From Polyangiales bacterium (GTDB lineage Bacteria; Myxococcota_A; Polyangia; Polyangiales; Ga0077539), in contig JBGARZ010000004.1 of the NCBI GenBank assembly GCA_044229975.1, positions 192,001 through 256,000 of the forward strand: DNA of 64,000 nucleotides, read 5' to 3'. Positions 10,334-60,045 of the stretch are shown here, in pieces (positions within the stretch are counted from its first letter, which is position 1; the number at the start of each line of letters is the position of its first letter). The translations under genes and the position numbers were made by a program. The notes beneath the pieces are model-generated. The model had not been told where the DNA came from. It searched no databases and saw only the letters and a list, made by a program, of their open reading frames with translations.

Positions 10334-10420
10334 CGGGCGATACGCCCACGGGATCGTGACGCCGATCGGGGGGACGGCGCGATGGTCCCGGTTTCGTGAG
10401 GTCGCCGCGCGATCGACGCG

Positions 10421-11215
10421 TCAGCCGAACGCCTCGTCCGCCGTGGCGGCCGTGACGACGCGCACCGCCCAGGCGCTGAGCTGCGCCACATCCCGGCACG
10501 CCTCGACGCGCGCCCACTGCTCGGGCGAGAGCGTCCACCCGCGCGCTTCGATGGTCGCGCGCAGGAGCGAGCGAGCCCCCTCCTCGCGCCCCTCCTCGCG
10601 CCCCTCCTCGCGCCCCTCGGTGCGCACCGCATCGAGGCTCTCGTATCCCTGCCGCTGGAGGAGGTTGCGCAGCGCGGCTTCGTGCGCGACCTCGCGGTCG
10701 TAGAGCGCCTCGATCGCCACCGCGTTGCGCAGCACGCCGGGCGCGGTGAGCGACTGACCCGGGCCCACCACCTTCACGGGCTGACCCTTCTCGTGCACCT
10801 CGACGCGCCGCGGACCGATGAGCCGGACGACCCACACCCAGCGCGTGCCGCCCGTGTGCAGCTCGACGATCTTCTGTTGGAGCGCGGCCTCGTCCTGGCC
10901 GACGGAGGCGTACTCCACGGCGAGCGGCGGCGCGGTGGTGCCCCAGCCCGGTCGCTCGGGGCCGAGGCCCACGGCGAGGTCGGGGGCGCGCAGCGTGTCA
11001 GGGCCGAGCGCGATGCCCGCGTCGACGCCGACGGCGGGCGCGAGGGGGTCGGTGTCGAGCACGAGGCCGCCGCGGAGGTTGGGGCCGGCGCCGTCGTGGC
11101 CCGTCGGAGCGGCATAGACGGCATGCCCCTGCGAGAGCTCGTAGGGGTCACCCGAGGACAGGTGCCACGTGCGGAAGGGACCCGGCGCGTGCTTCGGCTG
11201 CGTCATGGTGGCCAT
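10421..11215 (-). CDS. Uma2 family (PD-(D/E)XK) endonuclease with Rpn/YadD-like C-terminal tail
   Basis: YELSQG, APDLAV, PPLAVEYAS, GTRWVWVV, then (EGRE)x4 and a 'LSAWAVRVVTAATADEAF' tail. Confidence 0.8.
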   Translation of the reverse strand: MATMTQPKHAPGPFRTWHLSSGDPYELSQGHAVYAAPTGHDGAGPNLRGGLVLDTDPLAPAVGVDAGIALGPDTLRAPDLAVGLGPERPGWGTTAPPLAVEYASVGQDEAALQQKIVELHTGGTRWVWVVRLIGPRRVEVHEKGQPVKVVGPGQSLTAPGVLRNAVAIEALYDREVAHEAALRNLLQRQGYESLDAVRTEGREEGREEGREEGARSLLRATIEARGWTLSPEQWARVEACRDVAQLSAWAVRVVTAATADEAFG

Positions 11216-40233: not shown

Positions 40234-40306
40234 GCGAGACCTCGCCCACCCCCTGCTCACTTCTGGCCATTGATGGATCCATCACCTCCGGGGGACGGTG
40301 GCGCCC

Positions 40307-42217
40307 ATGAGGTGGAACCATCTGTTCGCGGCGCTCTTCGTCGCGCTCTCTGCTGGCTGCGTGGGTAGCGACGAGCCGCCGGTGTCCGACGGCGTCGAGA
40401 CCTTCGCCAACCCGCCCGAACTCACGCCCGACGCCGAGGGCTTCTACCAGCTCCGCTTCGGCCCCGGCGCCGTCGAGATCGCGGGGCAGCGCTACTGCCT
40501 GCGCACGTACAACGGGTCCGTTCCGGCGCCCACGCTGCGCTTCCGCGCGGGGGCCGATCGTCGCGTGCACGTGCGTCTGCGCAACGAGTTCACCCGACCC
40601 AACGGGCGCGAGGTGTCGGGCATGGAGGGCCGCGAGCGCCCGACCTGCCACGACTTCAACATCACCAACCTGCACTTCCACGGCGGTCATGTGCAGCCCA
40701 ACCACGCGACGCCCGACCCGGCCGATCGCTGCTCGGGCGAAGGCTGCGCGCCCGACGGTCGCTACTACGGCGACAACGTGCTGCGCGAGGTGCGCCAGGG
40801 CGAGACCGCCCAGTACCGCTGGGACCTCGACGAGGACGGCCCCCACCACGAAGGAACCGACTGGTACCACCCGCACACCCACGGCTCGACGGCCATCCAG
40901 GTCGTCAACGGCGCCGCCGGCGCGATCATCGTGGAGGGTCCGCTCGACGCCGAACCCACCGTCGCCGCGACGCGCGAGCGCGTGATGATGCTCAATGAAA
41001 TCCCCTTCAACCACGAGACCACCACACCCCTCGCCGCGGGCGAGGCGTGCACCGAGAACAACCTCTCCATCGACAACTTCCTCGCGGTCACCGAGGGGAT
41101 GCCCATCGTCATCAACGGGCGCGTGAAGCCGCGCCTCGTCACCGCGCCCGGACAGGTCGAGCGCTGGCGGATGATCTACGCCGGAACGCCCGACGAGATG
41201 GGCATGACCCTCCACCCCGGCCTCGACGCCAATTGCACCCGCTACAACCCCCTCGAGCGCATCGAGCTCACCCAGTACGCGCGCGACGGCATCACGCTCC
41301 CGCACTACTACCGCAACCCCGTCGCGTGGGTCTCACCCGGCTATCGCATCGACGCCTTCGTCCCGATGCCCGCCACCCCGCAGACCCTCTGCCTCGTCGG
41401 CCGCCGCACCCACGACCTCGCGGGCTCGGTCATCGCCATCGTCGAAGTACGCGCCGACGCCCCGCGCGCGACCAGCACCGCCATCCCGCCGGAGTCCGTG
41501 GTCACCGCCCACGCGCCGCCCATCACCTGGGCCGGTCGCGTCGACGGCGTCTCCACCCAGGTGAGCTGCGAGTCCGTCACGCGCATCCACCAGCGCGTCG
41601 GCCTGCTCATGCCGCCCATCCCGACGGGCAGCGCGTCGCAGCTCTCCCACGGCGGCCGCTGCGAGGCCGATCACGGCCGTCATCCGCGCGACCCCGACGC
41701 GCCCGTGTGCCAGTGCCCGGCGCCCAACATCAACTGCCGCAACTTCGAAGACCGCCGCTTCCGCAACTACCGCAGCGACCGCGTCGCGGTGCTCGGGCAG
41801 AGCGAGAAGTGGGAGGTCGTCGCGGCCGACGGGCACCCGTTTCACATCCACATCAACCCCTTCCTCGTGTGCCCCAACGACTCCAACAAGGAACCCAACT
41901 TCGCCCACTGGCGCGACACCCTCTGGGTGCAGATCGACGACCGACCGCGGCAGCTCCTCATGGACTTCCGTCGCTTCACCGGGACCTTCGTCGCCCACTG
42001 CCACAAGCTCAACCACGAGGACGAAGGGATGATGGAGCTCGTCGAGATCTGCGCCGAGGGCGACCGCGAGTGCCAGTGCCAGCGCACCGACGCGAGCGGG
42101 CGATGCGTCAGTCAGGCCGCCTGCCAGGAGGACGATCGACAGTGCCAGTTCGCCGCCCTTGCGACGGCGTCGTTTCCGCTGCCTCCGCCGCCCAACCCCG
42201 CGCTGTGTCGGCCCTGA
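40307..42217 (+). CDS. Multicopper oxidase lipoprotein
   Basis: Lipobox SAGC; TNLHFHG, WYHPHTH, HPFHIH, HCHKLNHEDEGMM (all four Cu motifs). Confidence 0.93.
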   Translation: MRWNHLFAALFVALSAGCVGSDEPPVSDGVETFANPPELTPDAEGFYQLRFGPGAVEIAGQRYCLRTYNGSVPAPTLRFRAGADRRVHVRLRNEFTRPNGREVSGMEGRERPTCHDFNITNLHFHGGHVQPNHATPDPADRCSGEGCAPDGRYYGDNVLREVRQGETAQYRWDLDEDGPHHEGTDWYHPHTHGSTAIQVVNGAAGAIIVEGPLDAEPTVAATRERVMMLNEIPFNHETTTPLAAGEACTENNLSIDNFLAVTEGMPIVINGRVKPRLVTAPGQVERWRMIYAGTPDEMGMTLHPGLDANCTRYNPLERIELTQYARDGITLPHYYRNPVAWVSPGYRIDAFVPMPATPQTLCLVGRRTHDLAGSVIAIVEVRADAPRATSTAIPPESVVTAHAPPITWAGRVDGVSTQVSCESVTRIHQRVGLLMPPIPTGSASQLSHGGRCEADHGRHPRDPDAPVCQCPAPNINCRNFEDRRFRNYRSDRVAVLGQSEKWEVVAADGHPFHIHINPFLVCPNDSNKEPNFAHWRDTLWVQIDDRPRQLLMDFRRFTGTFVAHCHKLNHEDEGMMELVEICAEGDRECQCQRTDASGRCVSQAACQEDDRQCQFAALATASFPLPPPPNPALCRP

Positions 42218-42365
42218 CGCGTGCTGCCCTGCGCCACACCTGCGGTCTGACAGGTCTATCGGCGCTCCACGCGCGGTGATAGACCACTGCCTTCCGAAGG
42301 TGGGCCGAACATCCGTGCGCCAGAGATAGGGCGCGCCGCAGCCCGCCGATCCATTGAGGAGGCGA

Positions 42366-45300
42366 ATGATGAGAGATCCTTGGGCAAGACGTGGCCTGCT
42401 GATCGCCGTACTGGCGGCGGTGCAGGCCTGTGACAGCGATCCGCCGGCGGCGGGCGCCGACGTGCCGGTCGTCAACAACGACACGGGCACCACCGACGAC
42501 GCGGGCACCACCGACGACACGGGTACGCCGGGTGACACGGGTACTCCGGGTGACACCGGCACCCCCGGCGACACGGGCACGCCCGGTGATACGGGTACGC
42601 CGGGCGACACCGGCACCCCCGATGACACCGGAACGCCCGGTGACACGGGCACCCCCGTCGACGCGCCGAGCTGTCTCAGCGGGCAGACGTCCTGCGCCGG
42701 GTCGTGCGTCAACGCGCAGACCGACAACGCCAACTGCGGGACCTGCGGCACCGTCTGCGGCACCGGCCAGACCTGCACCGCCGGCGTGTGCACCTGCATG
42801 ACCGGCCAGACGCTCTGTTCGGGCGCCTGCTTCGACACGCAGAGCAGCGACGCCCACTGCGGCGCCTGCGGCACGGCCTGTCCGTCGGGCCAGACCTGCC
42901 GCGCCGGCGTCTGCGGCGCCGCCTGCGCCGCGCCCCGCACCGTCTGCGGCACCACCTGCGCCGACACGCAGACCGACAGCGCCAACTGCGGCTCGTGCGG
43001 CACCGCCTGCCCGACCGGCCAGACCTGCCAGATGGGCGCCTGCGCCTGCGCCGGCGGCGGGCGCGTGTGCGGCGGGGCGTGCATCAACGCGCAGACCGAC
43101 AACAACAACTGCGGCGACTGCGGCGTCGTGTGCCCGAGCGGGCAGACCTGCACCGCGGGCACCTGCGCGTGCCCCGGCGGTCAAGCCGCCTGCGGTACGG
43201 CGTGCGTCAACCTCCAGACCGACGGCACCAACTGCGGCTCGTGCGCGACCGCGTGCGGCGCCGGCCAGACCTGCACCGCGGGCGTGTGCACCTGCCCGTC
43301 GGGCCAGGCCAACTGCGCGGGCACCTGCGCCAACCTCCAGACCAGCAACACCAACTGCGGCACCTGCGGCACCGCCTGCTCGGCGGGCCTCACCTGCATC
43401 GCGGGCTCGTGCGGCTGCCCGACGGGCCAGGCCAACTGCGGCGGCTCGTGCATCAACGTGCAGACCGACAACGCCAACTGCGGCACCTGCGGCGCCGCGT
43501 GCCCGGCGGGTCAGACCTGCGGCGCGGGCGTGTGCGGCTGCCCGGCCGGCCAGACGGCCTGCGGGGCGACCTGCGTCAACGTCCGCACCGACAACGCCAA
43601 CTGCGGCGCCTGCGGGACGGCGTGCTCGGGCGGTGAGACCTGCATGAACGGCGTGTGCGCCTGCGCGGCGGGTCAGACCTCGTGCTCCGGCGCGTGCGTC
43701 AACACCCGCACCGACAACACCAACTGCGGCACGTGCGGGACGGCCTGCGTGACGGGCCAGAGCTGCACCAACGGCGTGTGCGCGTGCCCGGCGGGCCAGG
43801 CCCTCTGCTCGGGCGCCTGCGTCAACCAGCAGAACGACAACAGCAACTGCGGCATGTGCGGCCGCGCCTGCACCGGCGGATCGTCGTGCAACGCCGGCGT
43901 GTGCACCTTCGCGCCGCCCGCCAACGACACGCGCGCCGCCGCGGTGGACGTCAACATGACCGCCGCCGCGTCGACCTTCACGGTCAACACGACCATGGCG
44001 ACCAACAACACCACCGGGCCCGCGTCGTGCGGCTGCACCAACGGGCGCGACGTGTTCTATCGCTTCGTGCTCACGGCGCCGGAGCTGGTCTACGCCGACA
44101 CCATCGGCTCGGCCTTCAACACGTCGCTCTTCTTCCAGGACAGCGCCGGGGCGAACATCGCCGCGGCGGGCGTCACGGGCGGGGCGTTCTGCGCGGACGA
44201 CGGCGGCCTCGGCTGCACCATCGGGCAGCAGAGCCAGGGGCTCGTGAGCCTCGCGGCCGGCACCTACTACCTCGTGATCTCGGGCTGCGACCAGGGCGCG
44301 GCCACGGTGCACTTCCAGCACCTCCCCGTCGGCGGAGCGACCTTCCCGCTCGTTCGCACCGAGGGCGTCACCACCACCACCACGGGCACCCTCACGGGCA
44401 CCAGCCAGTTCGCTGCTTCGTGCGGCAACAACGGCGCGGGCCCTGAGCAGACCGGCTGGCTCGTCACCTGCCCGACCTACGCGGGCGGGGCGTTCAACCT
44501 CACGACCGCGGGCGACCAGCGCACCGACACCGTGCTCGACCAGCGCAGCGCGGCGCGCACCGTCGTCGGCGCCTGCAACGACGACACGAACTTCTTCCAG
44601 TCGGCGCTGGGCACCACCCTGCCGGCCGGGGCGGGGCTCCACACCGTCTACGTCGACTCCTTCAACGCGATGCTCCCGACGGGTCAGGGCGGGTACACCC
44701 TGCGCTACACCCTCGGCGCCTGCGCCGCGGGCACCACGCTCTGCACCAACCGCTGCGTGAACTTCCAGACGGACAACACCAACTGCGGCGCGTGCGGCAC
44801 CACCTGCACGGGCGGTTCGGCCTGCACCGCGGGCGTCTGCGCCTGCCCGGCGGGCCAGTCCTACTGCGGCGGTAGCTGCATCGTCACCACCGGGGACGTC
44901 AACAACTGCGGCACCTGCGGCAACCGCTGCGGCTTCGGCCAGGTCTGCGGGCGCGGCGGCTGCGTCAACGCGGTGACCGGGCCGTCGTTCCAGGTGACGG
45001 GCCTCACGGCGACGGCGTGCTTCACGGCCGACGCGCTGGCCCTCGTCGGCGACACCACTGGCGGCATCGCCGTGTCGGCGACGCAGGTCTTCGACGGCGG
45101 CAGCTTCACGAGCCGCTTCTCGGCGACCAACCTCACGGGCGGCGCGCGCGTGGGCACCAACTACGACGGCCTGCTGTCCAACCTCCGCACCAACGAGGTC
45201 TACGCCCTCGGCACCGCGTCGGGCTTCCTCACCCGCGCGACGGGCGCGCAGACCATCACCCGCCTCGTGCGGCTCGACCCGGCGACGGGCGCGGCGACCG

Positions 45301-46565
45301 CCACGGTCATCCCGCTCTCGGTGACCATCCCGGTGAGCACCTCGTCGAACATCGGCGGCGTGTACTCGGGCTACGACCGCGCCGTGATCGTCACGGGCAC
45401 CAACGCGTTCCACATCGAGCTGCCCTCGGGCACGACCCGCGACCTCGGCGACCAGGGCATCCCCGACTTCCGTCGCGGCTGCACCGGCACCTGGGCCAAC
45501 TGGGGCGTCGTCGAGGCCATCAACGGCGTGCTCTACCTGGACTACCTGACCACGACCAACCGCGTCTTCCGCGTGCAGGTCGGCGCCACGGCGGGCACGG
45601 TCATCGGAACCCAGGCCTTCCTCAACCTCGGTGATGCGTGCTCGTTCACGGTCTCGCCGACGCTCAACCGCTGGTACTTCTCCACCGACGCGGCGTCGCA
45701 GTTCCGCGTGGGCACCGACACCCTGGTGTCGTGCAGCGCGACCTGGAGCCGCCCGAGCGACACCTTCCAGGTGAGCTCGCTCGCGGCCACCGGCTGCGGC
45801 ACCGCTGAAGTGGGCATCGGGTCCAACCGCGCGGCCATCTCGGGCAACGACGTGGGCGGCGTGGCGCTGTCGACGACCAACGTGTTCTTCGGCGGCGAGA
45901 CCTCGGCGGTGCGCGCGTCGGCGGGCGATCTCGGCGGCGTGGCGCAGGTCACCCCGGCGCGTCGCCTCGACGTCCTGGCGTCGGACCTCCGCTTCGGGCG
46001 CGTCTTCGCGCTGGGCAACGGAACCACCCCGGCGTCTGCCAACTCGACCACGGCGATCAACAGCCTGATCGAGATCGACGGCAACACGGGCACGGCGACG
46101 GGTCGCACCATCGCGCTCTCGCAGGCGCTCACCCTCACCGCGGGTGCGGGCGTCTTCTCGGGCTGGGACACCATCGGTCTCTGGACCGGCGGCCGCGCCT
46201 ACGAGATCGCGCTCCCGACGGGCACCGTGCGCGACCTCGGGGCCGTCACCGTCTCCGGCTTCGGCTGCGAGGGCGGGTACTTCTACGGCATCCTCGAGTT
46301 CTTCGGGGGCAACTACTACTTCGTCAACCGCAACGGGACGACGGGTAACAACCAGCGCATCACGCGCACGCTCATCCCGACGGGCACGGTCACGAACATC
46401 GCGACGTTCACCAACCTCGGTGACATGTGCAGCGTGAACTTCGCGCCGGGCCGCAACCGCTGGTTCTTCCACGCGGAGACGACGAACCAGTTCCGCACGC
46501 CGGCGGCGGCGGAGCAGCAGATCCAGACCCTGGGTTACTGCTCCGGCGCGTTCGCGCGGCCGTAG
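42366..46565 (+). CDS. Large Cys-rich repeat surface lipoprotein with a duplicated C-terminal domain
   Basis: RBS GAGGAGG; lipobox VQAC; (PGDTGT)n linker; about 13 TDNxNCGxCG repeats; two homologous ~260-aa C-terminal domains. Confidence 0.88.
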   Translation: MMRDPWARRGLLIAVLAAVQACDSDPPAAGADVPVVNNDTGTTDDAGTTDDTGTPGDTGTPGDTGTPGDTGTPGDTGTPGDTGTPDDTGTPGDTGTPVDAPSCLSGQTSCAGSCVNAQTDNANCGTCGTVCGTGQTCTAGVCTCMTGQTLCSGACFDTQSSDAHCGACGTACPSGQTCRAGVCGAACAAPRTVCGTTCADTQTDSANCGSCGTACPTGQTCQMGACACAGGGRVCGGACINAQTDNNNCGDCGVVCPSGQTCTAGTCACPGGQAACGTACVNLQTDGTNCGSCATACGAGQTCTAGVCTCPSGQANCAGTCANLQTSNTNCGTCGTACSAGLTCIAGSCGCPTGQANCGGSCINVQTDNANCGTCGAACPAGQTCGAGVCGCPAGQTACGATCVNVRTDNANCGACGTACSGGETCMNGVCACAAGQTSCSGACVNTRTDNTNCGTCGTACVTGQSCTNGVCACPAGQALCSGACVNQQNDNSNCGMCGRACTGGSSCNAGVCTFAPPANDTRAAAVDVNMTAAASTFTVNTTMATNNTTGPASCGCTNGRDVFYRFVLTAPELVYADTIGSAFNTSLFFQDSAGANIAAAGVTGGAFCADDGGLGCTIGQQSQGLVSLAAGTYYLVISGCDQGAATVHFQHLPVGGATFPLVRTEGVTTTTTGTLTGTSQFAASCGNNGAGPEQTGWLVTCPTYAGGAFNLTTAGDQRTDTVLDQRSAARTVVGACNDDTNFFQSALGTTLPAGAGLHTVYVDSFNAMLPTGQGGYTLRYTLGACAAGTTLCTNRCVNFQTDNTNCGACGTTCTGGSACTAGVCACPAGQSYCGGSCIVTTGDVNNCGTCGNRCGFGQVCGRGGCVNAVTGPSFQVTGLTATACFTADALALVGDTTGGIAVSATQVFDGGSFTSRFSATNLTGGARVGTNYDGLLSNLRTNEVYALGTASGFLTRATGAQTITRLVRLDPATGAATATVIPLSVTIPVSTSSNIGGVYSGYDRAVIVTGTNAFHIELPSGTTRDLGDQGIPDFRRGCTGTWANWGVVEAINGVLYLDYLTTTNRVFRVQVGATAGTVIGTQAFLNLGDACSFTVSPTLNRWYFSTDAASQFRVGTDTLVSCSATWSRPSDTFQVSSLAATGCGTAEVGIGSNRAAISGNDVGGVALSTTNVFFGGETSAVRASAGDLGGVAQVTPARRLDVLASDLRFGRVFALGNGTTPASANSTTAINSLIEIDGNTGTATGRTIALSQALTLTAGAGVFSGWDTIGLWTGGRAYEIALPTGTVRDLGAVTVSGFGCEGGYFYGILEFFGGNYYFVNRNGTTGNNQRITRTLIPTGTVTNIATFTNLGDMCSVNFAPGRNRWFFHAETTNQFRTPAAAEQQIQTLGYCSGAFARP
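42480..42660 (+). repeat. 18-bp coding tandem repeat (PGDTGT), about 10 units
   Basis: ccgggtgacacgggtacg-like units. Confidence 0.85.
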
Positions 46566-48080: not shown

Positions 48081-49694
48081 GTGCTAGCGTGGCCGACGGT
48101 GAAGGCGCTGGCGCGCAGTCTCGTGATCGCGGCGATGTTGGCGGGCTGCGCCGACGAGCGGCCACCGGGGCTCACGACGAGCGACGCTTCGTACTCCGAC
48201 CTCGGCGGGTGGAGCGACGCCGCGCCGCGCGGTGACGGGTCGCTCGGGCCGCGCGGGGCGTCGACGTACCCGGCGTACGACCTCACGGTGACGCTGCCCT
48301 TCAACGGCCCCGAGGTGACGTTCGAGATGCAGGCCGAGCCCCGCGCGACGAGGCTCGACGTGCACCTCAACGTCGACACCACCGGGAGCTTCAGCGGCGA
48401 GATCAACAACCTGAAGAGCGCCCTCGGCAACACCATCATCCCGGCGCTGCGGGCGCGGGTGGGCGACCTCGCCATGGGGGTGTCGCGCTTCGGGGAGTTT
48501 CCGGTGGCGCCCTTCGGTCGCAACACCGACCATGCCTACAACCTGTTGACGCCCATCACGGTCGACCTCGCGCAGGTGACGACGGCGGTCAACTCCCTCG
48601 ACCGACCGCTGCAAAACGGCGGCGACCCGGCCGAGCCTTGGGGCGAGGCGCTCTACCAGATCGCGACGGGCGAGGGGCTCTCGGGATTGGCGATCGGCAA
48701 CATCGCGCGCTTCACGCCGCCCGCGGGGACGGCGCCAGGGAGCGTGTTTGGCGGCGTCGGGTTTCGGGCGGGCGCGGCGCGGGTGGTGATCAACGTGACG
48801 GACGCGCGCTCGCACGAGCCGTCGGACTACGGCGAGGCGGTGCCGGGGACGCACTCCACCACGCAGGCGACGGCGGCGCTCCAGCTCATCGGGGCGCGGA
48901 TGATCGGCATCGCGTCGGGGGACGGGTCGCGCGCGCAGATGGAGGCCATCGCGATCGGCACGGGGGCGGTGGCGCCCGCGTCGGGCGGACGGTGCCCGAC
49001 GGGCATCTCGGGGTCGTCGCGCGGGGCCGTCAACGGGATGTGCCCGCTGGTGTTCGACATCGCGGAGGACGGCACGGGGCTCGGGGCGGCGCTGGTCGAT
49101 GGGATCTTGAGGTTCCTGGACTCGCTGGCGTTTGCGCTGGTGGACGGGCGGGCGTCGGACGACCCGCGCGGGTTCGTGCGGGCCATCGAGGCGGCCTCGG
49201 CGGTGGCGCCCGAAGGGGCGACCGCGCCGCGCCGGGAAGACCGCTCGCCGACGACGATGCTCGACGGGGTGCCGGACACCTTCGTGACGGTTCCGACGCG
49301 GACGCGGCTGACGTTTCGGGCGCACCTGCGCAACACGACGACGCCAGAGACGGAATACCCGCAGCTGTATTTCGTGCGGGTGACGCTGGTGGGCGACGGC
49401 GTGGTGGTGGGCGAGCGGATGGTGCGGGTGATCATCCCAGAGGGCCCGAAGGCCGACGCGGGAGACGGTGGAGACGCCGTGGTGCCAGCGGACCTGGTGG
49501 TGGCGACGGACGTGGGGATGGACGCGGGTACGGACGCGGGCGTGGTGGATGCGGGGACGCGGGACGTCGGCGTGGCGGACGTGGGCGCGGTGGATGCGGG
49601 GACGCGGGACGTAGGGACGCCGGACGTGGGCGTGGTGGATGCGGGCGTGGTGGATGATCCCGACGCGGCGGTCGACGCGGGCGTGGAGGACTGA
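48081..49694 (+). CDS. VWA-like lipoprotein with C-terminal Asp-rich tail
   Basis: Lipobox LAGC; DTTGS MIDAS-like motif, GGDPAE, EALYQIATGEG, GGVGFR, VTDA; DAG/DVG tail. Confidence 0.75.
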   Translation: MLAWPTVKALARSLVIAAMLAGCADERPPGLTTSDASYSDLGGWSDAAPRGDGSLGPRGASTYPAYDLTVTLPFNGPEVTFEMQAEPRATRLDVHLNVDTTGSFSGEINNLKSALGNTIIPALRARVGDLAMGVSRFGEFPVAPFGRNTDHAYNLLTPITVDLAQVTTAVNSLDRPLQNGGDPAEPWGEALYQIATGEGLSGLAIGNIARFTPPAGTAPGSVFGGVGFRAGAARVVINVTDARSHEPSDYGEAVPGTHSTTQATAALQLIGARMIGIASGDGSRAQMEAIAIGTGAVAPASGGRCPTGISGSSRGAVNGMCPLVFDIAEDGTGLGAALVDGILRFLDSLAFALVDGRASDDPRGFVRAIEAASAVAPEGATAPRREDRSPTTMLDGVPDTFVTVPTRTRLTFRAHLRNTTTPETEYPQLYFVRVTLVGDGVVVGERMVRVIIPEGPKADAGDGGDAVVPADLVVATDVGMDAGTDAGVVDAGTRDVGVADVGAVDAGTRDVGTPDVGVVDAGVVDDPDAAVDAGVED

Positions 49695-50097
49695 GTCCCG
49701 ACGGGGGGTGACGCGTCGGGAGCGCTGGCGGGCCCTTCGGGGGTGTGGTGCTGGTTCGATCGGTGGCGTGACATCGCGATGGCACCTCCGCCGCCATGGC
49801 GGCCGCCACCTGCCGCCACCCCTCGACGTTCGCGATTCATCGGTAGAACGTGGTCTTTCGGCGCGGCACACGCGTCGCTCTGCGCGCGGGCACGCCCATG
49901 GCCGACGGCGGTGGACACGCCCAGGTAGGATCGCGCGACCCCGTTCGCGACGGGGTGCTCGAGCTGCGGGGGGAGGCGCATGAGCGAGACGGCAGCGACG
50001 CAGTGCGACCGGGTGCTGCCCGCGGTGCCGACGGGAGACATGGATCTCGACGCGCCTTCGCCCTGACCCGCGGCGAGCGCCCGCGAGCCGTCGCGCC

Positions 50098-50162
50098 CTG
50101 CGCTCCGTGGATAGCGCTTCTGCGCTCCGTGGATAGCGCTTCTGCGCTCCGTGGATAGCGCT
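50098..50162. repeat. 22-bp tandem repeat, 3 copies
   Basis: ctgcgctccgtggatagcgctt at 50098, 50120 and 50142. Confidence 0.92.
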
Positions 50163-50230
50163 CGCTCGCTGTTGGTGCGAGCCTCCCCGCATCGGCGGCA
50201 GTCCTTCCCGTCCGACTCCAGGAGTCCACG

Positions 50231-51178
50231 ATGCGATCCCTTCTCGTCCCGGTTGCCCTGCTGGGCGTCGCTTGCGCCCCGGTGCCCGACGCCGTCTCCG
50301 AGCGCGAGGGCGGCGTGCCCGCGCTCGACGACTCCCTCCCCGAGCACGTGGCGCAGGCCGCGCAGGCCGCCACCGTGTGCCCGAACGGCGTCCTGCTGCG
50401 CAAGGAGGTGCGCGACCTGTCCTCCACCGAGTGGAACCGCTTCGTCACGGCGGTGCGGACCCTCATGAGCGGCACGAGGCCCACCGCCTACGACCGGGCG
50501 GTCAAGCCCTACGCGGACAACTACGGCTTGACGCATGGCGTCTCGCCGTTCTTCCCCTACCAACGCGCGTTCCTTCGGGATTTCGAGCGCCAGCTCCAGG
50601 CGATCGACCCCAGCGTGACAGTGCCCTACTGGGCCCTGTCGTTCGATTCCCAGGCCCCCGAGGCGTCGTCGATCCTCTCCGCGAGTCGATTCGGCGGGAA
50701 CGGAACCGGCACCTCTCACTGCGTCACCAATGGGGCCTTCGCAGGTTGGCAGCCCTTCTACGAGAGGTTCCACTGCCTCTCGCGGCAGTACAACCTGGGC
50801 AGTCGGATCGGCGCGTTCTACTCGGTCGAGGCCATCAACCGGGTCATCAGCACCAGCACGACGTACGACCAGTTCCGGCAGGCCATCGAGTACACCCCGC
50901 ACTCCCTGGTGCACACCAACATCGGGGGCGACATGGCGACCCGCTACTCCCCCAACGACCCGCTCTACTGGGTCGCCGAAGCCTATTGGGACAAGGTCTG
51001 GTCGGACTGGCAGCAGGCGAGGGCCGTCAACCGGACCGCCTACGGCGGACGGAACGCCAACGGCACCACCGCCCTCCCGACCGACCTCCTGCCGGGCTTC
51101 CCGATCCGCGTGCAGGACACGTTTGACACGAGCGCTCTCTGCTACCGCTACCAGCGCTTCAGCTGGACAGGGCAGTGA
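50231..51178 (+). CDS. Tyrosinase-fold lipoprotein with altered metal ligands
   Basis: RBS AGGAG; lipobox GVAC; RKEVRDLS, FERQLQAIDPSVTVPYW, PHSLVH, GGDM, SPNDP, terminal CYRY. Confidence 0.85.
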   Translation: MRSLLVPVALLGVACAPVPDAVSEREGGVPALDDSLPEHVAQAAQAATVCPNGVLLRKEVRDLSSTEWNRFVTAVRTLMSGTRPTAYDRAVKPYADNYGLTHGVSPFFPYQRAFLRDFERQLQAIDPSVTVPYWALSFDSQAPEASSILSASRFGGNGTGTSHCVTNGAFAGWQPFYERFHCLSRQYNLGSRIGAFYSVEAINRVISTSTTYDQFRQAIEYTPHSLVHTNIGGDMATRYSPNDPLYWVAEAYWDKVWSDWQQARAVNRTAYGGRNANGTTALPTDLLPGFPIRVQDTFDTSALCYRYQRFSWTGQ

Positions 51179-51471
51179 GGGGCTGACGCCGTCGACGCCC
51201 GCTGCGCGCTCCGGGTGATGCTCGACGAGGCCCTGGCGCAGTCGCCGGGGGACGCTCGATGCGCTCGACAGGAGCGGGACGGATGTTCCGGCGGGCGGGT
51301 GTTCGCCGGAGCCGAGAGCCCTGACCGAGAGATCATTGGCGGTTCGCGCGCGCCACCACTCAACCCTGCTCAGGGCACGGCGACGACGCGGAAGCAGCTC
51401 GGGCCGAAGGCGTCGATGCCCGACTGGCGCGGCTCTGCCCGCCGGCGCCGATCTGACCGGCGCCGCAGCTG

Positions 51472-51693
51472 ATGGTGCCGGTGTTGTACTTCGCGGTCTG
51501 GGCCATCTGTAAACCCGAGCGAATCCGGGCCGACGACGGTGCCCCGTTGGACGCCCCATGCGCGGGGTTCGAGCTCACCCCAGAGCAAGAGGCCGGCATG
51601 GAGACCGGGCTTCGTTCGACAAGGGAGGGACGCGTGGTGTCGCTCGAAGAAGCGCACGCCCGGATGACGGCGAAGCTCTCGGCGCTGCGATGA
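51472..51693 (+). CDS. Putative antitoxin-like small protein, possibly decayed
   Basis: ELTPEQEAGMETGLRSTREGRVVSLEEAHARM resembles the C-termini of ParE/RelE partner antitoxins. Confidence 0.4.
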   Translation: MVPVLYFAVWAICKPERIRADDGAPLDAPCAGFELTPEQEAGMETGLRSTREGRVVSLEEAHARMTAKLSALR

Positions 51694-51821
51694 ACCCCGA
51701 CCGGGCGGTGTGCACCGACGACGCCACGATCGACCCGGAGGAGCTGGCGGAGTACCTCGACGCTCCCAACCCCGTCGCTGACCGTCCCGCCCGTTGTTGG
51801 CTCCCGTCGCGTCGTCCCTGA
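51690..51821 (+). pseudogene. Truncated ParE/RelE-like toxin remnant
   Basis: ATGA overlap with the upstream ORF; VCTDDATIDPEELAEYLDAPNPVA resembles a ParE N-terminus; stops at 43 aa. Confidence 0.4.
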
Positions 51822-51833
51822 TACACCCGGCGC

Positions 51834-54563
51834 ATGCCCACGACGCTGCCGCCGCCCGGTGACCCGAAGGCCCTCTACGTGCTCGACCTCTCGGGCTACG
51901 TCTTCCGCGCCTATCACGCGGTCGCGCCGCTCTCCAACAGCAAGGGAGAGCCCACCTTCGCGACGCTCGGCGTCACCAACATGCTGCACTCGCTCGTGCG
52001 CAACCAGCGGCCGCACCTGCTCGCGGTCGCCATGGACAGCGCGTCGCCGACGTTCCGTCACGCGATGTACTCCGAGTACAAGGCCAACCGGCCGCCGCCG
52101 CCGCCCGACCTCTCGCTCCAGATGGCGCGCTGCCGCGAGGTGGCCGAGGCCTACAAGATCCCGGTGCTCCAGTGCGACGGCGTCGAGGCCGACGACCTGC
52201 TCGCCACCTGCGTCGTCGAAGCCCGCAAGCACGGGCTCTTCACCGTCATCTGCTCCGGGGACAAGGACCTCCTCCAGCTCGTCGCCGACGACGTCATCAT
52301 GTGGGACGCGATGCGCTCCCGCATCTACGGCGCCGACGAGGTGAAGGAGAAGTGGGGCGTCCCCCCCAACCGCGTGCGCGACCTGCTCGCGCTCATGGGC
52401 GACAGCTCCGACAACGTCCCCGGCGTGGCCCACGTCGGCGAGAAGACCGCCGCGAAGCTGCTCACGGAGTTCGACACGCTCGACGGTGTGTACGCCAACC
52501 TCGACAAGATCAAGGGGAAGGTCCGCGAGAACCTCCAGCTCCACGAGGCCGACGCGAAGCTCTCGCGCGAGCTCGTGAGCCTCAAGTACGACGTGCCCAT
52601 GACGCTCGACGTCGACGAGCTCACCTACGGCGGATACGACCGCGCGAAGGTTCGCGCCCTCTTCGAAGACCTCGAGTTCACCCGCCTCGTGGCCGCCATC
52701 GACGCCGAGGACGCCAAGGCCGCCGCGACGACCAGCGCCGCCGGGCCCATCGCGGCGGTGGCCGCGGTGTACGAGCCCGTGCTGACGCTCGACGCGCTCG
52801 ACGACGCCATCGCGAAGTGCCGCGCCGCCGGGAGCTTCGCCGTGGACACCGAGACCACCAGCCTCAACGCGGCGTCGGCGGCGCTCGTGGGCGTCTCGCT
52901 GTCGTGGGCGAGCGGCCTCGGGGTGTACCTCCCGCTCGGGCACCGGGTGCTGGGCGACCCGGCGCAGCTCGACCGCAAGGCCGCCCTCGACCGGCTGCGC
53001 CCGCTCTTCGCCGACGCGTCCGTCCGCAAGGTCGGCCAGAACGTGAAGTACGACGACATCATCCTGCGTCGCGCGGGCGTTCCGGTGAGCGGGTACGACT
53101 TCGACACGATGCTGGCGAGCTACCTCATCGACCCCGAGCGGCACACCCACAAGCTCGACGAGATCAGCAAGAGCGAGCTCGGCTACGAGATGGTGAGCTA
53201 CGAGAGCGTCACCAAGGTGGGCAAGGGCAAGCAGATCACCTTCGACGAGGTCGACATCGCGCGCGCCACCCGCTACGCCGCCGAGGACGCCGAGGTGGTC
53301 ACGCGGCTGCGCGCGCGGCTCGAACCGAAGCTCGATAGCGAAGGGCTCACGAAGCTCCTGCACGACGTCGAGCTGCCGCTGGCGCTGCTGCTCGGGCGCA
53401 TCGAGGAGCACGGCGTGCTGGTGGACGCCGCGCACCTGAAGGCGATGTCCAGGCAGGCGGGCGCCGACGTGGTGAAGCTGGAGGCCGAGGCGCACGCGAT
53501 CGTGGGCCACCCCTTCAACGTGAACTCCCCGAAGCAGCTCGAGACCATTCTCTTCGATGAGCTGAAGCTGCCGGTGCTGAAGAAGACCAAGACCGGGCGC
53601 TCGACGGACGCCGAGGTGCTCGATGAGCTCGCCGCGCAGCACGCGCTGCCCAGGAAGATCCTGGAGATTCGCTCGATCACGAAGCTCATCGGGACGTACC
53701 TCGACGCGCTGCCCGGCCTGGTCGACGCGAACGGCCGCGTGCATTCGAGCTTCAACCAGGCCGTGGCCGCGACGGGAAGGCTCTCGTCGGCCGACCCCAA
53801 CCTCCAGAACATCCCGGTGCGGACGCCGCTGGGGCGCGAGATCCGGCGCGCGTTCGTGGCGCCGCCGGGGTGCCTGATTCTCTCTGCGGACTATTCACAG
53901 ATCGAGCTGCGGGTATTGGCACATCTGTCGGGTGATCCGATCCTGGTGGACGCGTTCAAGTCGGGAGACGACGTGCACGTGAGGACGGCGATGGAGATCT
54001 TCAAGGTCGCCAGGGCCGACGTGTCGAAGGACATGCGCGCGAAGGCGAAGACGACGAACTTCGCGGTGATCTACGGGCAGGGCGAGTCGGCGCTGGCGAA
54101 GAAGCTGGGCATCACGCGCGACGAGGCGCAGGAGTTCATCGAGAAGTATTTCGTGACCTTCGCGACGCTGCGGAAGTACCTCGACGACGTGGTCGCCAAC
54201 GCCCGCACGGGCGAAGGGGTGCGCACGCTGCTGGGTCGGCGGAGGTTTCTGCCCGACCTGCACTCGTCCAACCGGGCGCTCCGTCTGACGGCCGAGCGCG
54301 TGGCGCAGAACACGCCCATCCAGGGGACGGCGGCGGACATCATCAAGCTGGCGATGCTGCGCGTGGACGAGCGGATCACGGCGGAGAAGCTGGCGACGAA
54401 GATGGTCTCGTCGGTGCACGACGAGCTGGTCTTCGAGGTTCCGGTGGGGGAGAAGGATGCCGTGGGGCCGCTGGTGAAGGAGACGATGGAGGGGGTGATG
54501 AAGCTCGACGTGCCCCTGGTGGTGGAGTGCGGCTGGGGGAGCAACTGGGGCGACGCGCACTGA
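51834..54563 (+). CDS. polA: DNA polymerase I
   Basis: 5'-3' exo (EADD, DKDLLQ, GDSSDN), 3'-5' exo (DTETT, YAAED), polymerase motifs ADYSQIELR, IYG, IQGTAAD, VHDE. Confidence 0.98.
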   Translation: MPTTLPPPGDPKALYVLDLSGYVFRAYHAVAPLSNSKGEPTFATLGVTNMLHSLVRNQRPHLLAVAMDSASPTFRHAMYSEYKANRPPPPPDLSLQMARCREVAEAYKIPVLQCDGVEADDLLATCVVEARKHGLFTVICSGDKDLLQLVADDVIMWDAMRSRIYGADEVKEKWGVPPNRVRDLLALMGDSSDNVPGVAHVGEKTAAKLLTEFDTLDGVYANLDKIKGKVRENLQLHEADAKLSRELVSLKYDVPMTLDVDELTYGGYDRAKVRALFEDLEFTRLVAAIDAEDAKAAATTSAAGPIAAVAAVYEPVLTLDALDDAIAKCRAAGSFAVDTETTSLNAASAALVGVSLSWASGLGVYLPLGHRVLGDPAQLDRKAALDRLRPLFADASVRKVGQNVKYDDIILRRAGVPVSGYDFDTMLASYLIDPERHTHKLDEISKSELGYEMVSYESVTKVGKGKQITFDEVDIARATRYAAEDAEVVTRLRARLEPKLDSEGLTKLLHDVELPLALLLGRIEEHGVLVDAAHLKAMSRQAGADVVKLEAEAHAIVGHPFNVNSPKQLETILFDELKLPVLKKTKTGRSTDAEVLDELAAQHALPRKILEIRSITKLIGTYLDALPGLVDANGRVHSSFNQAVAATGRLSSADPNLQNIPVRTPLGREIRRAFVAPPGCLILSADYSQIELRVLAHLSGDPILVDAFKSGDDVHVRTAMEIFKVARADVSKDMRAKAKTTNFAVIYGQGESALAKKLGITRDEAQEFIEKYFVTFATLRKYLDDVVANARTGEGVRTLLGRRRFLPDLHSSNRALRLTAERVAQNTPIQGTAADIIKLAMLRVDERITAEKLATKMVSSVHDELVFEVPVGEKDAVGPLVKETMEGVMKLDVPLVVECGWGSNWGDAH

Positions 54564-54926: not shown

Positions 54927-56711
54927 TCAGGGCGACAGGTAGCGGAGGTAGACGTGGGCACCCGAGACGCCCGTCACCAGGTCGCCGCTCGCGTTGGACT
55001 GGAACACCACGTAGCTCCCGTCGGGGGTGATGGCGCTGGTGTCGGAGATGCCACCGGAGATGGTTCCGTCGAGGCGGCTCGACACGGTGAAGAGGGCGCG
55101 GGTAGCGAGGTCGAAGGTGAGCAGGTCGCGGCCGCTTCCGGGGTCGCCGACGACGAGGTTGGTGGCCTCGCTGTAGAAGAGAACGCGCCCGGTGGCGGTC
55201 ACCCCCGTGGGCATGGACACCCCGTTGGGCTCGACGCCGTCGGCGCGCAGGCTGACGCGCGTGGTGGTGTGCGTCGTGCGGTCGTGCACGTAGACGTCCG
55301 AGCGCCCGTTGGTGTCGCCCGCGACGAGGTTGGTCGCGTCGGACTGGAAGGCCACGTAGCGGCCGTCGCGGGAGATCATCGGGCGCCGCGATGATCCGTT
55401 GGCCTGCGTTCCGTCGGTGGCCACGCTCACGCGCTCGACGGTGTTGCTGGCGCGGTCGCGCACCATGACGTCGTAGAAGTTCGCGGTGTCGCCGGTCACG
55501 AGGTTGGACGCGCCCGACTCGAAGGCCACGTAACGGCCGTCCGTGCTCATGCACGGAAACGCGCTCTCCCCGTTGCCCGGCTCGCCGGTCGCGGTCTGGC
55601 TGATGAGCTCGTAGGTGCGCGCGGCGCGGTCGTAGAGCACGGCCTGGCGGGCCGTCGCGCCATGAAGAAACGCGGCGCCGTTGGTGCGGAAGGCCACGAG
55701 GCGCCCGTCCGCGGTGACCCGCGCGTTGTCGGCGAACTCGCCCGCCGCGAGGCCCGCGCTGACGTGCACGAGCGTGTGGGTGGCGCGCTCGAAGGCGAAG
55801 ACGTCGTTGTTGGCGTTGACGTCACCCGCCACGAGGTTGGTCGACGTGGAGACGAAGACCACCACGCGGCCGTCGCCAGAGATGTCGGCGTTTTGCGCGT
55901 CGCCGTCGCCCTCGGTGGTCTGGTTGGCGGCGAGGCTGGCGCGCTCCCAGGTGTTGAGCACGCGGTCGCGCACGTAGACGTCGTAGCGGGCGTTGGTGTC
56001 GCCCGTGACGAAGTTGGTCGCGCGCGAGTAGACGGCGACGAAGCGCTGGTCGTCGCTGATGGTGGGGCCGTAGGTGACGCCGTTGGCGAGGGGGTCGACG
56101 GACTCGATGGCGCCACAGGTCGAGCCGAGGCAGGCGGTTCCGGTGGCGCAGGCGGCGCCACACGCGCCGCAGTGGAGGCGGTCGTGGGCGGTGTCGACGC
56201 AGCGGCCGGAGCACACCGTCTCCCAGGCGGCGCAGGCGCAGGCGCCGGCGGTGCAGGTGCCGCCGGTGGGGCAGGCGTTGCCGCAGCCGCCGCAGTGGCG
56301 GGCGTCGGTGAGTGGGTCGACGCAGGCGCCGTCGCAGGTGAGGCGGGGCGCGACGCACGGCGGAACATCGACGGCCGGGGGCACATCGACGGCCGGGGGA
56401 ACATCGACGGGCGAGCCCGCGTCGATGGCGACGACATCGGACGCGACATCGGTGACGACGGGGACATCGGTGGCGACGGGGACATCGGTGGCGACGGGGA
56501 CATCGGTGGCGACGGGGACGTCGGTGGCGATGGGGACATCGCGAGTGGGAGCGTCGACGGTGGCGGTGTCGACGGGAGATCCCGCGTCGGTGGCAGGGAC
56601 ATCAGGCTGCGCGTTGGTATCGGGAGCGGAGGCGTCGAGGGCGGCGGTGGTGCCACCACCACAGCCGATGAGAACGAAGGCGAACGACAGCGAGGAAGGG
56701 GAAAACTTCAT
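54927..56711 (-). CDS. Lipoprotein: DVPVAT linker, Cys-rich repeats, TolB-like (PD40) beta-propeller
   Basis: Lipobox LIGC; 18-bp DVPVAT repeats; HCGGCG units; repeated ISxDGRYVAFxSxATNLVxGDTN. Confidence 0.88.
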   Translation of the reverse strand: MKFSPSSLSFAFVLIGCGGGTTAALDASAPDTNAQPDVPATDAGSPVDTATVDAPTRDVPIATDVPVATDVPVATDVPVATDVPVVTDVASDVVAIDAGSPVDVPPAVDVPPAVDVPPCVAPRLTCDGACVDPLTDARHCGGCGNACPTGGTCTAGACACAAWETVCSGRCVDTAHDRLHCGACGAACATGTACLGSTCGAIESVDPLANGVTYGPTISDDQRFVAVYSRATNFVTGDTNARYDVYVRDRVLNTWERASLAANQTTEGDGDAQNADISGDGRVVVFVSTSTNLVAGDVNANNDVFAFERATHTLVHVSAGLAAGEFADNARVTADGRLVAFRTNGAAFLHGATARQAVLYDRAARTYELISQTATGEPGNGESAFPCMSTDGRYVAFESGASNLVTGDTANFYDVMVRDRASNTVERVSVATDGTQANGSSRRPMISRDGRYVAFQSDATNLVAGDTNGRSDVYVHDRTTHTTTRVSLRADGVEPNGVSMPTGVTATGRVLFYSEATNLVVGDPGSGRDLLTFDLATRALFTVSSRLDGTISGGISDTSAITPDGSYVVFQSNASGDLVTGVSGAHVYLRYLSP

Positions 56712-56918
56712 GGATGGGCCTCCGCCGGGATGAGGGCGTGCGGGGCCTCTCGCGCCGTGGAAAGCGCGCTGCGCTGAGAGGACCCATCGACTCCATGAGC
56801 AATCGACGGGCCACGGTTGGTGCGCGATCAGTCGTTGGCGAAGACGTCGTCGACCGAGCGAACGGAGAGCACCCGCGCCGCCCACAGTCGGCGGTGCCAC
56901 GCCGCGGCGTGGGACCCA

Positions 56919-58897: not shown

Positions 58898-59028
58898 GCG
58901 GTGCGACCGTACACCTCGACGCGGGCGCCGGCCCCAACGCATCCGGCGAGTACGACGTGCTCCCGCTCGGCGCGACCGCGGTCCTCGAGCGGCTCACCCG
59001 CTGAGCGCGGAGGGGCGTGGGTTGGCGC

Positions 59029-59057
59029 TTGACGCGCCATGCTCGATGCGACACAAA
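59029..59057 (+). promoter_or_regulatory. Possible sigma70-type promoter for the ncRNA-abi unit
   Basis: TTGACG at 59029-59034; weak -10 (CACAAA) 17 bp downstream. Confidence 0.35.
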
Positions 59058-59121
59058 CCCATCCAACACGCCCGCCTCGCCTCTGCCGAAAGGCACGCGC
59101 ACTAGGCGGGCTTTTTCATTT
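59058..59121 (+). ncRNA. Candidate AbiF-associated structured RNA (RNA antitoxin or attenuating leader)
   Basis: Outer stem GCCCGCCT 59070-77 with AGGCGGGC 59104-11; inner TGCC-GAAA-GGCA hairpin 59084-95; T-tract 59112-16; directly 5' of the abi ATG. Confidence 0.6.
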
Positions 59122-59139
59122 CTTCGGCGTGGGTCTGCG

Positions 59140-60045
59140 ATGGGGACGCGCTACGACAAACCGGCCCTGACGATCGACCAGCAGCTGGCGTTGTTGGTGT
59201 CTCGCGGCATGACGGTGGCCGACCCTCAGCGCGCTCAGCGCGTGCTCTCCAACATCAGTTACTACCGACTCAGCGGCTACTGGTATCCGCTCCGCAAGGT
59301 CGACGCCGCCGGGCAGCGAGCTGACGACTTCCGGCTGGGCAGCAGCTTCGAGTTGGCCGTCGAACTGTACGAGTTCGATCGTCAGCTTCGCCTCGAGTTG
59401 CTCGACGGAGTCGAGCGGGTGGAGGTCGCGCTCCGCACCAGCGTGACCTACCGCTTCGGGCTAGCGGCGGGAGCTTTCGGCCACACCGACCCGACGAAGT
59501 TTCGCGCCGGTTTCGAGCACGCAGACTGGCTCCGACGGGTCGAGGAGGAGATCGAGCGTTCGCAGGAGACCTTCGTCGAGCACTACCGGCGGCGATACGA
59601 CGGCCACCCCCGACTGCCGCTGTGGATGGCGACGGAGGTGATGTCCTTCGGCTCCCTCTCGCGCCTCTTCAAGAACGTCGCGGCAGACGTCCAGCGCGAG
59701 ATCGCGAAGCCCTTCGCCGTCCACCACAGCGTGCTCGCGAGCTGGCTGCACGTGATCACCGTCGTCCGCAACGTCTGCGCCCACCACGCCCGGCTCTGGA
59801 ACCGCGAACTCGGCGTCCGGCCCAAGTTGCCCCAACACGACCCGAGCTGGAGGGTTCCGGCGTCGGACCGACTCTTCGCGGTGCTGCTCATCCTGCGCCA
59901 TATGCTCCGTGCTCTGGGCGAAGGCAGCGGCTGGGCCACGAGGGTCGAGCAACTCGTGAATCCGATCGCACGGAAGGGGGCCAACGGCACCTCCATGGGT
60001 CTTCCGCCACGCTGGAACGATCACCCCATCTGGGCCGGTCGCTGA
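59140..60045 (+). CDS. Abi family (Abi_2; AbiD/AbiF-like) HEPN ribonuclease
   Basis: KPALTIDQQLALLVSRGM, ISYYRLSGY, LYEFDRQLR, ERVEVALR, PLWMATEVMSFG, HEPN RNVCAH (RxxxxH), RLWNR. Confidence 0.92.
   Translation: MGTRYDKPALTIDQQLALLVSRGMTVADPQRAQRVLSNISYYRLSGYWYPLRKVDAAGQRADDFRLGSSFELAVELYEFDRQLRLELLDGVERVEVALRTSVTYRFGLAAGAFGHTDPTKFRAGFEHADWLRRVEEEIERSQETFVEHYRRRYDGHPRLPLWMATEVMSFGSLSRLFKNVAADVQREIAKPFAVHHSVLASWLHVITVVRNVCAHHARLWNRELGVRPKLPQHDPSWRVPASDRLFAVLLILRHMLRALGEGSGWATRVEQLVNPIARKGANGTSMGLPPRWNDHPIWAGR

Follow-up and report, generated by a model that had tools for sequence, protein, structure and literature searches.

A gene for a tyrosinase-fold, predicted lipoprotein of a Polyangiales bacterium with three altered copper ligands and a candidate His-His-Glu metal site

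Introduction

Type-3 copper proteins bind their metals through three His at each of two sites, CuA (HisA1 to HisA3) and CuB (HisB1 to HisB3), and a recent review describes these six copper His as perfectly conserved (PMC11608171). The same review reports that single His replacements abolish or nearly abolish the activity of three characterised polyphenol oxidases (PPOs) and lower their copper content. In TYRP1 and TYRP2 (dopachrome tautomerase), the tyrosinase fold is described as holding zinc and supporting non-oxygenase chemistry. Among the PPO types, d and e come from zoopagomycetes and chytrids, bacterial PPOs are listed only under types b, h and k or as unclassified, and the classification reports no characterised member of types a to e (PMC11803259). 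The gene described here lies at 50231..51178 (+) of a 64,000-nucleotide stretch, the window, which comprises positions 192,001 to 256,000 of contig JBGARZ010000004.1 of a Polyangiales bacterium (assembly GCA_044229975.1). Its 315-aa product, P0001, is a tyrosinase-fold protein, predicted to be a lipoprotein, in which three of the six copper His are replaced, and the residues at CuB would form a His-His-Glu site of a His-His-Glu/Asp type that recurs in several related lineages.

The metal-ligand positions of P0001

In multiple alignments, the CuA ligand columns of P0001 hold Y94 (HisA1; 50510..50512, on the + strand like all features of the gene), H102 (HisA2; 50534..50536) and Q111 (HisA3; together with Y110 at 50558..50563). 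The CuB columns hold H224 and H228 (HisB1-x3-HisB2; 50900..50914) and E250 (HisB3), which is preceded by A249 in the column of the seventh His (A249-E250, 50975..50980). This register is fixed by anchors published for the alignment of copper ligands (PMC3658974, PMC11803259), namely F107 as the Phe four residues before HisA3, the HisA2-x8-HisA3 spacing and D254 as the Asp at +4 from HisB3. A249/E250 moreover pair with H215/H216 of 1WX2, which fixes the register at CuB. Neither the CuA motif H-xn-H-x8-H nor the CuB motif H-x3-H-xn-H is present. As aligned, H224, H228 and E250 match the pattern of two His and one Glu or Asp at ligand positions (2-His-1-carboxylate).

Several second-shell anchors are retained: F107, R112, E119, the water-keeper glutamate E220 (50888..50890) and D254; the Phe four residues before HisB3 is Tyr246. 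R238 (50942..50944), at a position that is Met in 87% of six-His relatives, aligns with G204 of 1WX2, which we take to be the gate-keeper position above CuA. Position 110, Tyr in P0001, is Trp in 94% of six-His relatives. The short spacing of 7 to 9 residues between HisA1 and HisA2 that marks PPO types d and e, together with an export signal, is found at positions 94/102 and in a lipoprotein-type signal. Judged by these residues, activation of O2 by two coppers is very unlikely in P0001, because three ligands and the seventh His are gone, whereas in characterised PPOs the replacement of one His already removes all or nearly all activity.

The sequence-only reading of this gene had seen a tyrosinase homologue with three of the six copper His replaced (Y, Q, E) and with the second CuA His and the PHxxVH of CuB kept; the open reading frame (ORF) and the multiple alignments bear this out, H102, H224 and H228 being the retained ligands. 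It had allowed that a proper alignment might place other His at the sites, but the remaining His of P0001 (39, 163 and 181) lie outside the ligand columns. Its listing of PYWA as a deviation did not hold up, as the six-His relatives L009 and P0188 read PYWA too.

The ORF reads through 315 codons without a stop and, as had been claimed from the letters alone, without a frameshift. The protein matches PF00264 with 88.7 bits (cut-off 22.6) and is the sole PF00264 match in the 10-Mb genome. Its AlphaFold2 model, built from a 150-row alignment, has a predicted local distance difference test (pLDDT) score of 91, with 96-99 in the core, and a predicted template-modelling score (pTM) of 0.84. By this model, P0001 would adopt the tyrosinase helical fold; against TyrBm and MelC2, Foldseek gives a probability of 1.0 and TM-scores near 0.7. 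The N-terminus (50231..50275) is a predicted lipoprotein signal with Cys15 as the probable lipidation site: MR is followed by a hydrophobic run and the lipobox LGVAC, and the nearest relative, P0002, has its Cys in the same setting. The lipobox of the earlier reading needs qualifying, as its Gly at -3 is slightly off the usual consensus; a linker motif of host type, sought behind the lipobox, occurs in only 3 of 357 lipobox-like frames and is uninformative. A flexible linker (residues 16-48, 50276..50374; pLDDT 54-60 over residues 1-50) leads to the tyrosinase core domain (50375..51157), which lacks a C-terminal domain and keeps Cys50, Cys164, Cys182 and Cys304, probably as disulfides. Codon use is host-like: the GC content at third codon positions (GC3) is 0.92, and among 4877 ORFs of the genome the gene ranks at the 43rd percentile for codon adaptation. 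In run X1, one 151-base contig spans 50368-50518, including the Y94 codon, with one difference of unlocated position. The sequencing runs listed for this DNA comprise two DNA runs with a small share of it and no RNA run, which bears on neither expression nor habitat.

A recurring carboxylate at CuB

Relatives were compared in 245 aligned rows, each covering 200 columns or more, with no gap at a ligand column and a protein length of 1100 aa or less. Six His are present in 188 of them. An acidic residue at HisB3 occurs in seven: P0001, P0002 (Asp), the cluster P0044/P0179/P0180, P0090 and P0186, in all of which the seventh-His position is Ala or Thr, giving a common [A/T][E/D] pair. When rows were merged at 80% identity, the 49 ligand-altered rows became 38 lineages, five with the carboxylate and 33 others. 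HisB1 is kept in 5/5 carboxylate lineages but in only 1/33 of the others (Fisher 1e-5, a value that overstates the contrast because kin are non-independent). HisB2 is kept in 5/5 as against 18/33 and the water-keeper Glu (E220 column) in 5/5 as against 23/33, whereas the seventh His is kept in 0/5 as against 21/33. The acidic residue at HisB3 is found only alongside both HisB1 and HisB2. None of 40 longer hits combines the His-His-Glu site with a fused domain, which is weak evidence.

On the CuA side, all three His are kept in P0002, the P0044 cluster and P0090, while P0186 reads L/Q/H and P0001 Y/H/Q. As read from the alignment, the CuB change is common to these lineages, and the CuA losses of P0001 and P0186 are separate and different. 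Quick trees of author-chosen subsets, in which deep branches are weak, were built with the ligand columns masked. They make P0001 and P0002 sisters (support 85-92) and group P0090 and P0186 with the six-His long forms P0018 and P0187 (support 91-98). A single clade of the five carboxylate lineages is rejected by the approximately unbiased (AU) test, with p=0.0036 for 22 rows under a mixture model and p=0.049 for 30 rows. Because of this grouping with six-His forms and the rejection of the one-clade model, the carboxylate change at CuB likely arose at least twice.

The CuB half, His-His-Glu, is a recurring state in five lineages, which fits a remodelled and possibly mononuclear site. The remodelled site proposed in the sequence-only reading gains from these five lineages only in its CuB half: the full set of Y/H/Q plus H/H/E occurs in none of the 245 rows besides P0001.

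Changes on the CuA side

None of the 12 nearest relatives tested shares Y94 or Q111, which in this comparison are private to P0001. At HisA1, Tyr is the most frequent replacement (14 of 27 non-His rows in the 245-row alignment). Both codons, TAC for Y94 and CAA for Q111, are one base away from a His codon. For the last two reasons, Y94 and Q111 look like a release of the CuA site and not like selected O-donor ligands of a remodelled site, which the sequence-only reading had suggested as one possibility.

Conserved-column changes that P0002 does not have are H94Y, W110Y, H111Q and M238R. Private residues number 8 at positions 86-112, where 2.6 are expected (p about 0.001-0.003); this range was picked knowing the two His changes, and both are counted among the 8. 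The drifted neighbours on this side are A90, P93, A95 and Y110. At 219-254, 4 private residues stand against 3.1 expected, so there is no CuB-side cluster. Most private changes are not fresh, because the codons of 32 of the 33 private residues end in G or C and because W110Y and M238R each take two base changes or more. The scaffold is largely intact, with 40 of 44 non-ligand conserved columns kept, as had been claimed; the 108 six-His references, which themselves define the consensus, have a median of 3 changes across the 44 columns. The rare GAA codon of E250 had been considered as a sign of recency and was dropped, as relatives have Glu and GAA may be synonymous.

A possible one-metal protein and the alternatives

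P0001 may be a membrane-anchored one-metal protein that is not an oxidase and whose role would be to bind phenolic or quinone-type ligands or to convert them without oxidation. We give this reading of the sequence a probability of roughly 0.4.

In its favour stand the five carboxylate lineages, all of which retain HisB1, HisB2 and the E220 column, the likely recurrence of the CuB change, the two different CuA losses beside it, the kept scaffold with private residues gathered at 86-112, the private changes that are mostly not fresh, the unbroken ORF next to a broken IS91 remnant, the inactivity or near-inactivity of single His mutants of PPOs, and the zinc precedent of TYRP1 and TYRP2. A number of observations weigh against it. 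The nearest relative, P0002, has the shorter Asp and not Glu at HisB3. Three of the five carboxylate lineages retain all CuA His; their function may need both sites, and P0001 may be a broken version. The lineages are only five, with P0044 and P0090 on short contigs and P0186 labelled 'bacterium' on an 1880-bp contig. The test does not reject a clade that unites P0001, P0002, P0044 and P0179 (p=0.55), so the independent origins may be only two. Q111, with its CAA codon, looks recent. No sigma-70-type promoter match was found for the gene, and scans of genomes and metagenomes found no DNA of a close His-His-Glu relative. The gene is absent from all 30 other genomes of the same family, and no common gene neighbourhood was seen at a plasmid locus or, with 26 of the 48 candidate ORFs scanned, at four loci in actinobacteria.

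Several of these points also serve the most serious rival, early decay. Here a functional ancestor with three CuA His and His/His/Glu at CuB would have left a copy in a dead IS91 remnant that is now losing its function. Presence in 1/31 family genomes, the broken element flanking the gene, the missing promoter match, the three relatives with a complete CuA and the single-base steps to Y94 and Q111 all agree with it, as does the CAA codon, the sole one among the 15 Gln codons of the gene and used at 9% in the genome. Against it, the changes cluster on the CuA side and are not spread evenly. The kept scaffold columns and the mostly host-preferred private codons also speak against it, as does an ORF free of stops and indels although its terminal branch measures 0.3-0.5 changes per site; the adjoining insertion sequence (IS) remnant has lost 200 bp and is frameshifted, whereas the ORF has no such damage. 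On balance, decay of this copy is unlikely but has to be taken seriously. The earlier statement that the replacements are not simple decay is therefore only partly upheld: the scaffold and the recurrence of H/H/E favour it, and the decay of P0001 itself still competes with it.

A metal-free pseudo-enzyme, that is a secreted or surface binding module in which His/His/Glu is kept by structure or by chance, is improbable. Loss of ligands is certainly common once the fungal-type C-terminal domain is absent. In 188 subfamily rows, six His are found in 102/103 rows with this tail and in 22/66 short-tail rows, leaving altered ligands in 1/103 and 44/66, respectively; 10 of the subfamily rows had served to build the tail profile, and truncated as well as ascomycete entries are among the short six-His forms. 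Some relatives retain most scaffold columns without any of the six His, and others carry fused immunoglobulin (Ig)-like or lamin-tail domains. But the usual ligand loss removes HisB1 (32/33 lineages), which all five carboxylate lineages keep, and an acidic HisB3 was seen only where HisB1 and HisB2 are both present.

A full remodelling along the lines of the sequence-only reading, with Tyr94, His102 and Gln111 as a new O-donor site in a dinuclear iron or manganese centre with His224, His228 and Glu250, is very improbable. Tyr and Gln are able to bind metals, H102 is kept and the fold is intact. Against this, the six-residue set occurs in no other row, the combination of Tyr and Gln at CuA recurs only in P0071 and P0158, both with CuB destroyed, and the neighbours of the CuA ligands have drifted as well. 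A still-active copper oxidase that uses alternative ligands or another alignment is hardly tenable: E220, F107, R112, E119 and D254 are kept and the Pfam score is far over the cut-off, but no spare His lies near the ligand columns, the seventh His is lost too, and characterised PPOs become inactive or nearly so when a single His is replaced.

A possible course of events

The history of P0001 may have run as follows. The core of a secreted fungal-type PPO would first have lost its C-terminal domain and entered bacteria. HisB3 would then have become a carboxylate with loss of the seventh His, giving a site of three His at CuA and 2-His-1-carboxylate at CuB, a state that the alignment contains in P0002, P0044 and P0090. 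P0001 would next have given up the CuA half as well, where its changes cluster, and P0186 lost two other CuA His on the same background. Finally, the gene would have arrived at its present site as cargo between IS91 remnants; the empty site is observed, and transport by the element is presumed.

A single Zn, Fe, Mn or Cu ion is predicted to sit at the old CuB, held by His224, His228 and Glu250. At the cell envelope, this metal, together with the water-keeper E220, might bind ligands of phenolic, catechol or quinone type. Alternatively, the site might perform non-redox Lewis-acid chemistry on such ligands, with no activation of O2 at two coppers. The broader claim, that fungal-type cores in bacteria repeatedly turn CuB into a 2-His-1-carboxylate site and can then discard CuA, is doubtful as it stands. 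If it were true, a dicopper scaffold would have given rise to mononuclear Fe, Mn or Zn proteins with new chemistry, with P0001 as the furthest-evolved example, and all of them would belong to a larger radiation, as yet undescribed, of tyrosinase-fold proteins with altered ligands.

Relatives and origin

The nearest relative of P0001, P0002, shares 58% core identity with it. The nearest six-His relatives (L009, P0188, P0185, P0003 and P0042) share 52-55%, carry a C-terminal domain matching named fungi (Syncephalis, Basidiobolus and others) and mostly have dibasic sites before this domain; L009 resembles a single transcript. Because of the tail, the dibasic sites and the transcript-like L009, these relatives are probably fungal. 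P0269, which has six His and bacterial Ig-like domains, is just as close (52%), so the immediate donor of the gene may have been another bacterium. Named Basidiobolus proteins share 41-44% identity with P0001. The best Atlas cluster of P0001 is 59% eukaryotic with Zoopagomycota commonest, which is a lead only, and our trees place P0001 among fungal-type forms with weak deep support. By its sequence, the subfamily fits PPO types d/e. From the distribution of the subfamily and its sporadic presence in bacteria, we infer a transfer from fungus to bacterium, the tree being unrooted.

Named hosts of ligand-altered forms are Streptomyces, Nocardia and Yinghuangia. Among 400 same-order and 400 same-phylum genomes, other matches reached at most 140 bits as against 511; of these weaker matches, the five with sites read (L002, L017, L018, L058 and L059) are all six-His. 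A further 400 genomes of the G401 genus gave no match at E 1e-58, and viral contigs yielded no relative. One subfamily record was read from plasmids, H1, with the site HHH/FHA.

As a separate observation, a gene with a cofilin/ADF domain (PF00241, E 6e-12) lies at 10110-10733 of locus L006 in Streptomyces sp. NPDC001717, 4 kb from a fungal-type tyrosinase. It is near an ISL3 transposase piece and is the second eukaryote-like gene in that region.

The genomic setting

The gene lies in a lineage-specific insertion with approximate ends at 49695..51787. The gap between the upstream gene and polA measures 2139 bp here and 95, 67 and 337 bp in congeners G002, G008 and G004, respectively. The site is empty in these three congeners; in the other five, the flanks are on separate contigs or were not found. 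Upstream lies a gene without Pfam match (48081..49694, +), conserved in 7/8 congeners and presumably vWA-like by its look, and downstream polA, encoding DNA polymerase I by its Pfam match (51834..54563, +). Within the insertion, no caddie gene ORF and no operon partner were found.

At 49788..50094 (+), the left end of an IS91-family transposase survives with its zinc-finger region, as a remnant that is frameshifted and lacks about 200 bp. It matches G000:C14:204770-205300; that ORF, an intact copy, has PF04986 and PF14319, and the genome has 7 PF04986 matches. The remnant is followed by three identical 22-nt tandem units (50098..50162, +), which end 68 bp upstream of the start codon and occur nowhere else in the genome. 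Each unit at this junction between IS remnant and gene has, by eye, a short inverted repeat.

Downstream of the gene, 51477..51555 (+) holds the distal piece of a short repeated element and is likely the right end of the IS91 element, as copies of the repeat follow IS91 transposase ends. The repeat is about 120 bp long, occurs at about 10 other genome sites, two of them just 3' of IS91 transposase ends (C14 and C15), and may be a non-autonomous IS91 derivative. Its sites in G000 are C14:206500-206620, C15:183188, 189483 and 192187, C10:164982, C1:26307, C24:4909, C32:661084 and C19:371778 and 378060; copies other than those at the C14 and C15 transposases are orphan. The transposase of the element at the P0001 locus is deleted and frameshifted, and its termini are only partly recognisable. 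The order and orientation of the pieces fit a cargo that replaced the transposase, and the gene was presumably carried by the element.

Elsewhere in the window, a lipoprotein-like multicopper oxidase gene (40298-42217) lies 8 kb upstream of the tyrosinase-fold gene. Large secreted proteins with STIG1-like Cys-rich repeats and collagen-like or acidic linker repeats are encoded at 42354-46565 (+) and 54927-56900 (-). The STIG1-repeat proteins, the genome size and the GC content suggest a myxobacterium-like host; a primer-motif search for 16S rRNA gave no hit. An Abi_2 (abortive-infection-like) gene at 59017-60045 has a GC3 of 0.83, below its neighbours.

The wider group

In one subfamily, 38 lineages break the rule of six His, nearly always where the fungal C-terminal domain has been lost, and five of them have a specific His-His-Glu/Asp site, likely of more than one origin. 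Six-His (L009), five-His plus Glu (P0044, P0090) and CuA-less forms (P0001, P0186) make up a natural series in which changes of metal and function can be followed. The annotation 'tyrosinase' of such bacterial genes is likely wrong as regards activity. If P0001 is merely decaying, the single gene is ordinary, and the His-His-Glu group would still be of interest. In the literature covered, which was incomplete, neither the His-His-Glu variant nor the ligand-altered bacterial group is described, and bacterial PPOs of fungal type that lack the His are likewise unreported there.

The 33 other lineages are short and mostly signal-bearing, with varied ligand losses; 32 lack HisB1, some lack all six His, and some relatives of this kind are fused to Ig-like or lamin-tail domains. 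Examples are P0005, P0008, P0017, P0023, P0050, P0061, P0064, P0071, P0075, P0113, P0139, P0150, L005, L008 and L057. They possibly form a separate class of non-catalytic tyrosinase-fold proteins. P0063, P0069 and P0088, probably from animals, are very long multidomain proteins with repeated tyrosinase domains and several copper His missing.

Comparison with known systems

The secreted PPOs of early-diverging fungi (types d/e; Basidiobolus, Syncephalis, Neoconidiobolus) share with P0001 the PF00264 core, the short HisA1-HisA2 spacing and an export signal. Unlike them, P0001 has a bacterial host, a lipoprotein anchor and no C-terminal domain, and 3/6 ligands and the seventh His are replaced. 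The bacterial tyrosinases MelC2 of Streptomyces (1WX2) and TyrBm of Priestia megaterium (3NM8) have the same fold, the HisB1-x3-HisB2 arrangement and the water-keeper, but they are only 26-29% identical to P0001 and have six His, and P0001 is without an adjacent caddie gene.

The setting of the gene resembles that of IS91-family cargo genes in that it lies between a collinear left-end/transposase piece and a likely right-end piece, with an empty site in congeners. In contrast to intact IS91 elements, the transposase at this locus is deleted, and the element is known here by its partial termini.

As for the metal site, 2-His-1-carboxylate sites are represented by the facial triad of non-heme iron proteins and by the zinc sites of gluzincins, with HExxH plus Glu. 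P0001 is like them in that one helix carries two His, at i and i+4, and another helix, 22 residues further on, carries the Glu. The folds are unrelated, and P0001 has S225, and no catalytic Glu, directly after the first His. TYRP1 and TYRP2, which have the tyrosinase fold, keep their His ligands, bind two metals and are 15-16% identical to P0001; P0001 differs from both by the carboxylate at a ligand position and by the loss of the CuA half.
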